Below are positions 43,686-59,658 of a DNA stretch of 60,547 bases, piece after piece. Where the stretch lies: the NCBI GenBank assembly GCA_016215405.1, contig JACRJQ010000002.1, positions 125,597 through 186,143 of the forward strand, in the 5' to 3' direction. This DNA comes from Candidatus Tayloriibacteriota bacterium (GTDB taxonomy: Bacteria; Patescibacteriota; Minisyncoccia; Phycocordibacterales; UBA6065). Below the pieces are notes generated by a model, which searched no databases, was not told the origin of the DNA, and was given only the letters and a program-made list of their open reading frames with translations. Numbering within the stretch: position 1 is the stretch's first letter; every line of letters starts with the position of its first letter. A program made the translations under genes and the position numbers.

Positions 43686-43722
43686 TGGCTAATATAGAAG
43701 ACTTGGCCAGAAAGATAATCTG

Positions 43723-43795
43723 AGCCACCTCCCAGGCTTGAACTGGGGACCTACTGTTTACAAAACAGTTGCTCTACCAACTGAGCTAAGGTGGC
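43723..43795 (-). tRNA. tRNA-Thr(TGT)
   Basis: GCCACCTTAGCTCAGTTGGTAGAGCAACTGTTTTGTAAACAGTAGGTCCCCAGTTCAAGCCTGGGAGGTGGCT; CCA not encoded. Confidence 0.96.
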
Positions 43796-58186: not shown

Positions 58187-58804
58187 TTATGGCACTGGGG
58201 CTTTAAAGGCGGTTCCTTTATAGGAAAACGCCAAAGGCCTTCCCTTGCGAGGAGACTTTTCGAGCTCGACTCTGCCGAATCCCGCTCCGCGCACCAACGC
58301 CTCGATGTCTCGGTCGAGGTTGCAGCCTCCGGCGCACCTCTTCCAGAGCGGATTAAGCGCTGCCTGGACGAGAGCGACGCGCCGGCTCGACGACTTTCCG
58401 TGCTCGATGAAAAGGAATCTCCCGCCGGGCTTTAGCACCCTGAGGACCTCGGAGAGCGCGGAAGCGACGCCTGGGATGGTGCAAAGGGTCCATGTGGACA
58501 GGACCGTATCGACCGAAGAGTCAGGAAGAGGGACGCTCTCCGCTCCGGAAGCGATGCGCTCGACCGGGATCTCTGACGCTCCTATCCTCTCTTCGGCTAT
58601 GCCGTAAAGGGAGTCCGACGGTTCGAGCGCGTAGATCTTTTCGACGCCGCTATAAAATGGGACGTTCCTGCCGGAGCCGAAGCCGATCTCTAGGACGACC
58701 CCCTTCGCCTCCGAGACTATCGATGCGCGCTCTCGGTCCATGAATGACATCGAGAGGTCGAGGAGTCGCGCGAAAAGGCCTTTTTTGTTTCCGTTCACGG
58801 ACAT
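58187..58804 (-). CDS. class I SAM-dependent methyltransferase
   Basis: VLEIGFGSG, DSSVDTVLSTWTLCTI, VLKPGGRFLFIEHG. Confidence 0.93.
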   Translation of the reverse strand: MSVNGNKKGLFARLLDLSMSFMDRERASIVSEAKGVVLEIGFGSGRNVPFYSGVEKIYALEPSDSLYGIAEERIGASEIPVERIASGAESVPLPDSSVDTVLSTWTLCTIPGVASALSEVLRVLKPGGRFLFIEHGKSSSRRVALVQAALNPLWKRCAGGCNLDRDIEALVRGAGFGRVELEKSPRKGRPLAFSYKGTAFKAPVP

Positions 58805-58811
58805 GGCGGGA

Positions 58812-58997
58812 TTAGTCTCGAATCCAGCGCGCCGCCGCGATCAACGCGAGGATGACGCCCACGACGACGAACCATGTAGCGTAAGGAAGGATAGCCTCCG
58901 ACCAATAAGAGCCGGCAGCAGCGCCTATCGCGAGAACCGAGAGCTTTATAAGGCCCATATCCCCCCAGCCCATCTCTTTGCTTTTGAATATTCTCAT
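58812..58997 (-). CDS. small two-TM hypothetical protein (61 aa)
   Basis: Hydrophobic helices; TATAAT 6 nt upstream of the ATG. Confidence 0.7.
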   Translation of the reverse strand: MRIFKSKEMGWGDMGLIKLSVLAIGAAAGSYWSEAILPYATWFVVVGVILALIAAARWIRD

Positions 58998-59019
58998 ACG
59001 GCTATTATAGCCTGTCGAT

Positions 59020-59184
59020 GGAGGCGGAGAGAGTTTCGGTCCCTACAGGACCAGTACCCCGATTGGCGCGAGTACGCGACTCAATCGGGCTTCGAATCTC
59101 TCACGCAGGCGTACCACGCCTGCTCGCCTCCGCAAATCAAAATCGCCTTTCGGCGATTGATTTGCGGAGGCGGAGAGATTCGAA
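59020..59184. repeat. inverted and direct copies of the tRNA-Ser 3' end
   Basis: 59091-59102 and 59125-59138 are exact reverse complements of 59173-59184 and 59159-59172; 59020-59032 GGAGGCGGAGAGA repeats 59166-59178. Confidence 0.8.
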
Positions 59185-59251
59185 CTCTCGATACCCTTGC
59201 GGATATACGACCTTTCCAGGGTCGCGCACTAGACCACTATGCGACGCCTCC
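59165..59251 (-). tRNA. tRNA-Ser(GGA)
   Basis: GGAGGCG acceptor stem, CGACC-CTGGAAA-GGTCG anticodon arm, long variable arm, GTTCGAATC T loop, G discriminator; CCA not encoded. Confidence 0.96.
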
Positions 59252-59346
59252 GTGAGACTTAATTTATACTCGATTATGCGATTTTCTCCAAATGCTTTTC
59301 CCAGCGCGCGAGTAACTTTCTCCCTGGTTCGGGTATTATATGCAGC

Positions 59347-59658
59347 ATGACCAAAAAACCCATCTATAACGCCCTGCTCGCCGCGGGGTACATATCGCTC
59401 ATCGTCTTGGGCGGAAACCTCGTAGCCTTGATCGACATACCGACCGAGGATAATCTGTTCGCTCCGATGGGAATGCTCGCCCTTCTCGTCCTCTCAGCCG
59501 CAACGATGGCGTATCTATTCTTCTATCAGCCGGTCATGCTCCTTATCGAAGGCAAGAAAGAAGAGGCGGCGAAGCTCCTCCTGAAGACCATCAGCGCGTT
59601 CGCGGTCATCACCGCCATCTTCCTCGCCCTCGCGCTCTTCGTATTCCCGTTCGTCTAG
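59347..59658 (+). CDS. three-TM hypothetical membrane protein
   Basis: Three hydrophobic segments; TATTAT 7 nt upstream of the ATG; hairpin downstream. Confidence 0.75.
   Translation: MTKKPIYNALLAAGYISLIVLGGNLVALIDIPTEDNLFAPMGMLALLVLSAATMAYLFFYQPVMLLIEGKKEEAAKLLLKTISAFAVITAIFLALALFVFPFV

Follow-up and report, generated by a model that had tools for sequence, protein, structure and literature searches.

This study concerns a stretch of 60,547 nucleotides (nt) from the genome of a Candidatus Tayloriibacteriota bacterium (contig JACRJQ010000002.1, positions 125,597 to 186,143), hereafter the window, and within it a module of repeats and hairpins at positions 59020-59164, directly downstream of the gene for tRNA-Ser(GGA). 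The structure at this locus is one copy of a family, and not a device specific to the maturation of tRNA-Ser. On balance, I favour the explanation that the module is a non-autonomous insertion element without proteins of its own, residing at the 3' end of tRNA and transfer-messenger RNA (tmRNA) genes. The members of this family share a strict position and orientation, have arms that match the local tRNA and hairpins that covary, occur in tandem, and occupy loci that are empty in related genomes.

The tRNA-Ser(GGA) locus

The tRNA-Ser(GGA) gene is found at 59165-59251 on the minus strand, both by ARAGORN and by the Rfam tRNA model (RF00005, 56.2 bits), and it does not encode its CCA. In plus-strand coordinates the discriminator lies at 59165, the 3' strand of the acceptor stem at 59166-59172, the 3' strand of the T-stem at 59173-59177 and the T-loop at 59178-59184. 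An earlier interpretation of the letters alone (the sequence-only reading) had proposed that the tRNA end pairs with 59125-59138, that 59091-59102 is complementary to the T-arm, with a hairpin inserted between these two parts, that 59020-59032 repeats the tRNA end, and that the plus-strand unit is closed by a GGAGGCG/CGCCTCC stem. All of these are present. The first belongs to a perfect inverted repeat of 16 nt (59125-59140 and 59157-59172), the second is an inverted repeat of 12 nt with 100% identity (59091-59102 and 59173-59184), and the hairpin GCAGGCGT (59105-59112)/ACGCCTGC (59116-59123) parts both halves of this inverted copy. The direct repeat GGAGGCGGAGAGA at 59020-59032 is identical to 59166-59178, in the acceptor and T-stem region of the tRNA, at 13 of 13 positions; these are its only two exact copies in the window, where shuffled sequences give 0.47 matches with one mismatch permitted. 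The repeats at tRNA-Ser are far beyond chance. The predicted fold of the minus-strand RNA from 59010 to 59260 reaches -139.6 kcal/mol (z = -11.3), which none of 200 shuffles equalled, and that of the plus-strand unit (59015-59140) reaches -63.2 kcal/mol (z = -6.4), with GGAGGCG/CGCCUCC closing three hairpins.

Read outward from the tRNA, the module begins with a terminator hairpin on the minus strand (59133-59164), composed of an A-rich arm, a GC-rich apex (AATCGCC-GAAA-GGCGATT) and a T-rich arm. The terminator scan calls it on that strand as 59158-59141 plus TTGATTTG, a GC-rich hairpin followed by a T-run as in an intrinsic terminator. Its orientation is such that it stops the tRNA transcript, and its stem continues gaplessly into the pairing of the tRNA end with the inverted copy. 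The acceptor part of that copy follows at 59125-59132 on the plus strand (CGCCTCC and G, the acceptor 3' strand and discriminator on the opposite DNA strand). The inserted hairpin, here called H3 (59104-59124, loop ACC), stands exactly between the acceptor part and the T-stem part, the latter being TTCGAAT and CTCTC at 59091-59102 on the plus strand, that is, the T-loop and the T-stem 3' strand. Beyond it lies a conserved core at 59036-59090, matched by a covariance model with 107 bits and consisting of TCG, a hairpin Ha (GGTCC at 59038-59042 and GGACC at 59048-59052, loop CTACA), the joint AGTA (59053-59056) and a stem P3 (CCCGATTG at 59058-59065 and CAATCGGG at 59082-59089, with an apical CGCG-AGTA-CGCG hairpin). 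The distal direct repeat on the plus strand, which is the reverse complement of tRNA positions of about 60-72, ends the module and forms the 5' arm of the plus-strand fold. As read here, the module thus comprises distal repeat, core, split inverted copy and terminator, and the covariance-model match covers 59020-59133 of it.

An Rfam scan of 58700-59500, with E-values up to 10, returned the tRNA and otherwise chance-level matches only. Neither ARAGORN nor RF00005 calls the plus-strand unit (59020-59132) a tRNA, the minus-strand tRNA-Ser being the sole call, and against the tmRNA model RF00023 the unit scores 5.4 bits (E = 8.5), with a gathering score of 47 bits; ARAGORN places the genuine tmRNA of the genome elsewhere. 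A ribozyme or k-turn identity of the core was considered and rejected, as no hammerhead, twister or k-turn consensus was seen by eye and no Rfam family matched. At the other tRNA gene of the window, tRNA-Thr(TGT) at 43722-43795, the module is absent, the inverted-copy scores (5/8 and 6/12) being at chance level.

A family of modules at tRNA and tmRNA genes

When 59020-59165 was compared by BLAST with its own genome of 836 kb (G000), more copies were found, each beside a tRNA or tmRNA gene. A covariance model built from 11 copies gives 17 strong and about seven weak matches in G000. In the comparison set, 41 genomes of the same order of Patescibacteria (candidate phyla radiation, CPR), 24 genomes have matches, with 0 to 24 copies per genome and a patchy occurrence within the genus; the counts per genome are nearly all-or-none, and they are lower bounds, as the model detects one core type only. 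In a sample of 300 genomes from the phylum, searched with stricter filters, the model matched in this order alone. The sequence-only reading had named the lack of any similar structure at other tRNAs as an argument against itself; the opposite was observed, with similar structures at many of them.

The position of the modules is strict. In an alignment of 49 copies that represent about 25 genomes, the 3' arm is closely followed by a tRNA on the opposite strand in about 40, usually at a distance of 14-50 nt, and the remaining ones lie beside the tmRNA gene, within tandem arrays or at contig ends. A scan independent of the model, for which an inverted acceptor copy of at least 7/8 followed by an inverted T-part of at least 10/12 was demanded, and which takes in other core types, finds the split inverted copy at 17 of the 46 tRNA and tmRNA genes of G000. 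By the same measure, it is present at 14 of 31 tRNAs in G023, a genome from another genus. Modules are about 130-175 nt long and hold no open reading frame (ORF), and in genomes of 0.6-0.9 Mb between a third and half of all tRNA and tmRNA genes are occupied by them. Tandem copies are present at Ser-GCT and Val-GAC, and in G036. In this last genome, two modules that are 100% identical stand in tandem beside one tRNA gene, with a period of 166 nt (C43:295-594), a pair that indicates recent duplication or repeated insertion.

Conserved core and local arms

The order outward from the tRNA is the same throughout: terminator, inverted copy of acceptor and discriminator, H3, inverted copy of T-stem and T-loop, and a core of two hairpins, past which the tRNA end is repeated directly, as a distal repeat, in about 40% of the copies. 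On the strand opposite the tRNA, the family reads as the distal repeat (from the tRNA 3' end to the middle of the T-loop), TCG, Ha with a YTACR loop, CAGTA, and P3 with a variable tip. Next come GGC, the T-loop and T-stem 3' strand of the local tRNA in exact copy, an A, H3 and a T; the order ends with the copied acceptor 3' strand and discriminator, likewise local, the terminator hairpin and the tRNA itself. T-loop-like TCGA motifs flank the core on both sides. Across the 11 copies of the model, the invariant columns are TCG, AC, CAGTA-CC and GGC-TCGA.

In 25 copies from many genomes, the T-loop and T-stem copy is 95% identical to the local tRNA and the acceptor and discriminator copy 86%, and the gap taken by H3 is constant at about 22 nt across the family. 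The distal repeat shows a bimodal distribution in these 25 copies, with matches of either 12-13 of 13 (intact) or 6-8 of 13 (chance level). Given this bimodality next to well-matched inverted arms, the inverted copy is therefore retained while the distal repeat decays. In G000, distal repeats with at most one mismatch in 14 nt occur at nine places, representing eight tRNA loci.

The hairpins Ha, P3 and H3 covary. In an alignment that had been fitted to the covariance model, 92.5% of their cells are paired, as compared to 56.5% in shuffles and at most 55% when the partners are slid against each other, and both sides have changed in 293 cells, as compared to 95 in shuffles. In H3, changes on both sides are observed at all seven modelled pairs.

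Cores are 94-97% identical at unrelated tRNAs of single genomes. Such near-identical pairs are those at Arg-GCG and Gln-CTG in G015, at a tmRNA-like gene and Leu-TAA in G023, and at Ser-GGA and Ser-GCT in G000. In the pairs of G015 and G023, the tract of identity spans exactly from 5' ATCG to 3' GGCTTCGATT, which are the T-loop-like motifs that bound the core; outside this tract, H3 agrees to only about 75%, the arms are local and the terminators unrelated. The two serine tRNAs of G000 differ by one base at their ends, and both arms hold the locally correct base. As the tracts of identity end at T-loop-like motifs and the arms remain local, cores have therefore apparently been exchanged or converted between loci, the arms following the local tRNA.

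On either side of a second core type (GGTCACAGG...CGCGACCCCGCCTCGCG), unrelated to the first, the same kinds of arms are found, inverted and direct copies of the end of the local tRNA. This second type was seen in G000 in the distal unit at tRNA-Ser(GCT) (C4:102217-102372) and at tRNA-Ile(GAT) (C5:43716-43914), and in G029 at tRNA-Val(GAC), and it is sometimes nested in the first type or in tandem with it.

Occupied and empty loci

For a comparison tRNA by tRNA, three whole relatives (G003, G008 and G023) were reassembled from fetched regions. In the congeners G003 and G008, the split inverted copy is present at 0 of 37 and 0 of 41 tRNA genes, respectively. The tRNA-Ser(GGA) gene itself is 99%, 98% and 95% identical in the congeners G008, G013 and G011, with no trace of a module downstream. 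In G008 and G013 the locus is orthologous to that of the window, because the same genes are found on the 5' side of the tRNA; the 3' side is rearranged.

Overall, G000 and G008 are broadly syntenic, and eight tRNA loci (Phe, Val-GAC, Gly-GCC, Leu-CAA, Thr-CGT, Trp, Gly-TCC and Met) have conserved sequence on both sides. From Phe to Thr-CGT in this list, homology downstream of the tRNA clearly resumes 150-450 nt further out in G000, and at the last three the trailer match is just 11 nt. The start codon of tdk follows tRNA-Phe at 12 nt in G008 and at about 245 nt in G000. Even more pronounced is the difference at Val-GAC, where the start codon of tsaD overlaps the CCA of the tRNA in G008 and lies about 420 nt away in G000, with two tandem modules in between. 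The extra DNA at the syntenic loci of G000 takes in the terminator hairpin, and at Val-GAC a second terminator and an older module are found past the distal repeat. From the comparison of occupied with empty loci it follows that the module is dispensable for the tRNA and behaves as an insertion.

These loci offer some further observations. In G008 the start of the tsaD-like gene overlaps the encoded CCA (C3:76893-76968) and no spacer is left, and judging from this spacing, tRNA and mRNA are probably co-transcribed there at Val-GAC/tsaD-like and at Phe/tdk. Encoded CCA ends are present in 4 of 45 and 3 of 31 tRNA genes of the element-rich genomes G000 and G023, and in 8 of 40 and 10 of 36 of the element-free G008 and G003; that encoded CCA is rarer in element-rich genomes is suggestive, though not statistically firm. 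Four tRNAs whose genes encode CCA in G008, those for Ser(GGA), Phe, Val(GAC) and Asn, have no encoded CCA but do have the module in G000. Next after tRNA-Ser(GGA), G008 has a gene (C8:314387-317000) that adjoins tRNA-Gln(CTG) in G000 (C4:53843-54547), and breaks of synteny between these two genomes fall exactly at tRNA 3' ends, as if modules or tRNA ends mediate rearrangement.

The congener G003 gave no tblastn match for a TruB-like pseudouridine synthase, GroEL/GroES, TrhO, CorA and others that most relatives have, nor for a gene cluster of contig C5, unannotated, which I take to be the ATP synthase. The genome of G003 is more reduced and, for tests of presence and absence, serves poorly as a negative control.

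A proposed mode of entry and the search for an enzyme

The T-loop region may be where a module enters, by recombination like that of the integrative elements known from tRNA genes. In that case, the module would have brought along the present 3' end of the tRNA and its terminator, and what is now the distal repeat would be the original end, pushed outward; at tRNA-Ser(GGA), the repeat at 59020-59032 is possibly such an outer end of an insertion. Entry in the T-loop fits because the terminator is part of the extra DNA and, at Val-GAC, a second terminator and an older module lie past the distal repeat, and because the four tRNAs that encode CCA in G008 lack it in G000. The inverted copy and the copy of the tRNA end could fold, as single-stranded DNA or as RNA, into a duplex that mimics the target, and a host enzyme acting in trans would use this folded mimic. 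Recombination with the T-loop-like motifs as its limits would exchange cores among the copies that reside in one genome. By analogy only, a duplex mimic of the target recalls the single-stranded attP hairpin that CTX-phi offers to the Xer recombinase of its host.

The reading as an insertion element was also among three offered by the sequence-only reading, which spoke of a relic of an element that targeted the tRNA end. It is the best supported of the three, as the structure is multi-copy, always at 3' ends of tRNA and tmRNA genes, bounded by a direct repeat and absent from orthologous syntenic tRNA loci.

However, several results weigh against an insertion element. An enzyme for the insertion was not found by profile and candidate-protein searches in the 41 genomes. 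Reverse transcriptase (RVT_1) is absent from G000 and from most element-rich genomes. The only tyrosine recombinase of G000 is one Xer-like protein (PF00589, at C5:166439-166990), and such a protein, mostly a single one, is present in 39 of the 41 genomes irrespective of the number of elements. G000 also has one ORF resembling a Y1 transposase, but the distribution of this family (PF01797, in 13 of the 41 genomes) does not follow that of the elements: G009 and G023, with 17 and 22 copies, lack it, and the copy-free G011, G031 and G034 have it. About 20 candidate partner proteins, selected as ORFs common to the element-rich G000 and G023 and missing from the element-free G003 and G008, were profiled over the 41 genomes, and none tracks the elements. 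Exact and gapped core patterns gave no match in viral contigs, and neither an excised or circular form, nor a larger autonomous relative, nor far-off direct repeats of tRNA ends came up in these searches.

The structure of the modules raises further objections. Since H3 stands between two segments that both match the local tRNA, simple copying from the tRNA cannot yield it, and an insertion element does not by itself account for arms that match about 20 different tRNAs. Retention of the inverted copy with decay of the distal repeat, as read from the alignments, would fit a function in cis equally as well as mobility. The 3' flank of tRNA-Ser(GGA) is non-syntenic in every relative searched, and therefore an exact empty site for this copy does not exist; a search through the downstream methyltransferase returned one distant homologue only, and the flank pattern for an empty or variant site had no match in metagenome contigs. 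Finally, the polarity of the differences, insertion here or deletion in the congeners, is deduced from the structure of the repeats and not from a dated phylogeny.

Some candidates arising from these searches were set aside. TruB, a PolB-like exonuclease, TrhO and CorA, considered as partners, are merely missing from the more reduced G003. Clustered hits, considered as versions of the module with cargo, hold no cargo ORFs and are ordinary tRNA clusters. A protein of 155 amino acids without a Pfam match occurs in three element-bearing genomes only among the 41, namely in G000 (C6:51063-51569), in G023 (C3:66751-67185, between two module-bearing tRNA genes) and in G012 (C20:12060-12527); since most other genomes rich in elements lack it, it is no more than a weak lead.

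A more far-reaching version of the insertion element is also conceivable, though I think it rather improbable. The modules might belong to integrative elements of a new class, which encode no protein, carry their target in both strands as a mimic or guide and are inserted by the general machinery of the host. The hairpin junction would hold the inverted and the direct copies of the tRNA tail and target the region from the T-loop to the 3' end of one tRNA, and the target-matching arms would be rewritten or exchanged when a new tRNA is colonised. If true, this would be a naturally programmable, nucleic-acid-guided insertion system in the smallest bacteria.

Alternative explanations

Alternatively, the plus strand may give rise to a structured RNA of about 115 nt that serves as a tRNA-specific mimic, decoy or guide, in which Ha, P3 and H3 form a conserved scaffold and interchangeable segments match the 3' end of the tRNA next to the module, either directly or as its complement. 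I consider this unlikely, even though the strong covariation of the hairpins described above speaks for it. The alternation of a conserved scaffold with locally matched parts resembles guide RNAs, and the tRNA-matching 3' arm is kept as the distal repeat decays. A weak promoter-like TTGAAT-16-TATAGC, noted by eye on the plus strand, ends at 59011, just ahead of 59020; however, no plus-strand promoter at this copy passes the promoter scan, and in tandem arrays a terminator lies directly ahead of each unit. About half of the copies have the 5' arm for the acceptor-like stem at chance level only, an RNA acting in trans has no need to adjoin its target gene, and entire congeners live without the module. 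For a tRNA-like RNA from the opposite strand, another proposal of the sequence-only reading, the evidence is divided: the fold and its covarying hairpins favour it, and the rejection of the unit by the tRNA and tmRNA models, the missing promoter and the decayed 5' arm count against it.

The pairs within the stems bear on this RNA as well. The stems are almost wholly Watson-Crick (741 pairs, with 49 G-U and 20 A-C), a composition that would fit constraint at the DNA level or on both strands. The excess of G-U on the plus strand, which is in favour of an RNA, stems from two conserved positions of P3, columns 79:169 (14 UG) and 82:166 (19 GU and 3 UG), and at the other stem positions the A-C pairs (20) outnumber the G-U pairs (13). 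The minimum free energy is better on the tRNA-sense strand (on average -52.1 vs. -48.6 kcal/mol, in 40 of the 49 copies), and with respect to the strand the pair counts and the free energy are in conflict.

Less probable still is a by-product of replication, in which template switching at the terminator hairpin and at the TTCGAA palindromes of the T-loop would have produced an inverted triplication with neither mobility nor function. Such switching could explain the arrangement of copy, hairpin, inverted copy and copy, the seamless junction with the terminator stem, the boundaries in the palindromic T-loop and the arms that are always local, and, as it needs no enzyme, it fits the empty enzyme search. 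But it leaves unexplained the conserved core of 59-90 nt and H3, which are common to unrelated tRNAs and to the families of the order, and no core-less version is present among 31 occupied loci. The second terminator that would be expected after the distal repeat is usually missing, and the near all-or-none counts per genome are not what template switching would give.

The remaining proposal of the sequence-only reading, that antisense and anti-antisense segments in the trailer of tRNA-Ser act in cis as a switch on folding, termination or 3' processing, is highly doubtful. It is true that tRNA end, terminator and inverted copy form one continuous hairpin and that the inverted copy is conserved across the family. 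However, most transcripts should stop before the antisense segment, because the T-run of the tRNA-sense terminator precedes it. Three congeners (G008, G013 and G011) have a tRNA-Ser(GGA) that is 95-99% identical and lacks this trailer, two entire congeners (G003 and G008) are without any module, and a switch would not account for the conserved core past the antisense segment. The probability of an assembly artefact at the Ser(GGA) locus is close to nil: the same architecture, with arms specific to each locus, recurs at at least 17 loci of G000 and in 24 other assemblies, which makes a local misassembly very unlikely.

Relation to known elements

No family in Rfam 15 matches the module, and a full-text literature search found no description of the family. 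I would file it as a variant of the tRNA-targeting insertion elements that matches no described element. The ends of tRNA genes are classic landing sites of mobile DNA, and every known user brings or borrows a recombinase. Integrative elements such as prophages and genomic islands recombine in the T-loop of tRNA and tmRNA genes by means of tyrosine integrases, as does the mycobacteriophage Ms6 at tRNA-Ala (PMC1762012). The modules are similar to these in that they target the 3' part of tRNA and tmRNA genes with a boundary in the T-loop, are flanked by a direct repeat of the tRNA end and leave the tRNA intact, accrete in tandem, vary in occupancy among relatives and have empty orthologous sites. 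In contrast to them, the modules measure only 130-175 nt and encode neither an integrase nor any other ORF, combine the same core with about 20 tRNAs, and include the target in inverted form as well as a folded core that is conserved, in host genomes that hold a single Xer-like recombinase.

The attP(+) site of CTX-phi is a folded single-strand site used by the XerCD recombinase of the host (PMC3442271), and other elements also exploit Xer (PMC5357621). Like these, the module has no integrase of its own, and a duplex can form from its two inverted segments that resemble the target; CTX-phi likewise leaves, once integrated, one inverted segment a short loop away from the junction. However, these elements target dif and are phage genomes of kilobase size, whereas the modules are found at tRNA genes, and any role of Xer is suggested here by analogy only.

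Miniature inverted-repeat transposable elements (MITEs), of which the Correia elements are an example, and the repetitive extragenic palindromic (REP) sequences and bacterial interspersed mosaic elements (BIMEs) with their REP-associated tyrosine transposases (RAYTs) are small, non-coding, rich in hairpins, multi-copy and patchy among close relatives. In all of this the modules, which vary among relatives in the same way, resemble them. They differ from MITEs in their arms, which are not a constant terminal repeat but differ per copy according to the local tRNA end, with a repeat of 13-17 nt, and from MITEs and REPs in their strict target; unlike IS200/IS605 elements or REP/RAYT systems, they have no Y1 transposase that tracks them. 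A retroelement primed by tRNA, similar to short interspersed nuclear elements, was rejected, as RVT_1 is absent from G000 and the repeats extend into trailer bases present in the gene, and not into CCA.

The RtT repeats of Escherichia coli (RF00391) are units behind tyrT that each hold a copy of the tRNA 3' end. A repeat unit behind a tRNA gene with a copy of its 3' end is a feature common to both, but RF00391 had no match at E-values up to 10 in 58700-59500, and RtT is confined to one locus, as compared to about 20 for the modules, with no known inverted copy or shared core. Among tRNA-like structures, which include the tRNA-like domain of tmRNA, viral 3' tRNA-like structures, mascRNA and minihelices of acceptor and T-arm, a resemblance is seen in the predicted plus-strand fold, where an acceptor-like stem of 7 base pairs is stacked on a T-stem-like one of 5 base pairs with a T-loop sequence. 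Unlike in these, the core is inserted between the 5' strand of the T-stem and the T-loop, and the 5' arm has decayed in half of the family.

If the modules are mobile, they would point to a hitherto unknown mechanism in which base pairing serves to recognise a target and to enter it; should they be functional, they would be an RNA or DNA device linked to tRNA that some CPR bacteria need and their close relatives do not. The modules account for odd tRNA flanks and breaks of synteny in CPR assemblies, and they may replace the 3' end and the terminator of essential tRNA genes. The defined pairs of occupied and empty loci, the covariance model and the clear negative-control genomes make up a system in which these possibilities can be tested.

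Upstream of a neighbouring reading frame

The palindrome GGCTATTATAGCC at 58990-59019 contains a perfect TATAAT on the minus strand, 6 nt ahead of the ATG of an ORF for a membrane protein of 61 amino acids (58812-58997), for which the promoter scan also picks TCGACA-17-GAGAAT. Because the TATAAT lies only 6 nt before the ATG, the mRNA of this ORF is probably leaderless.

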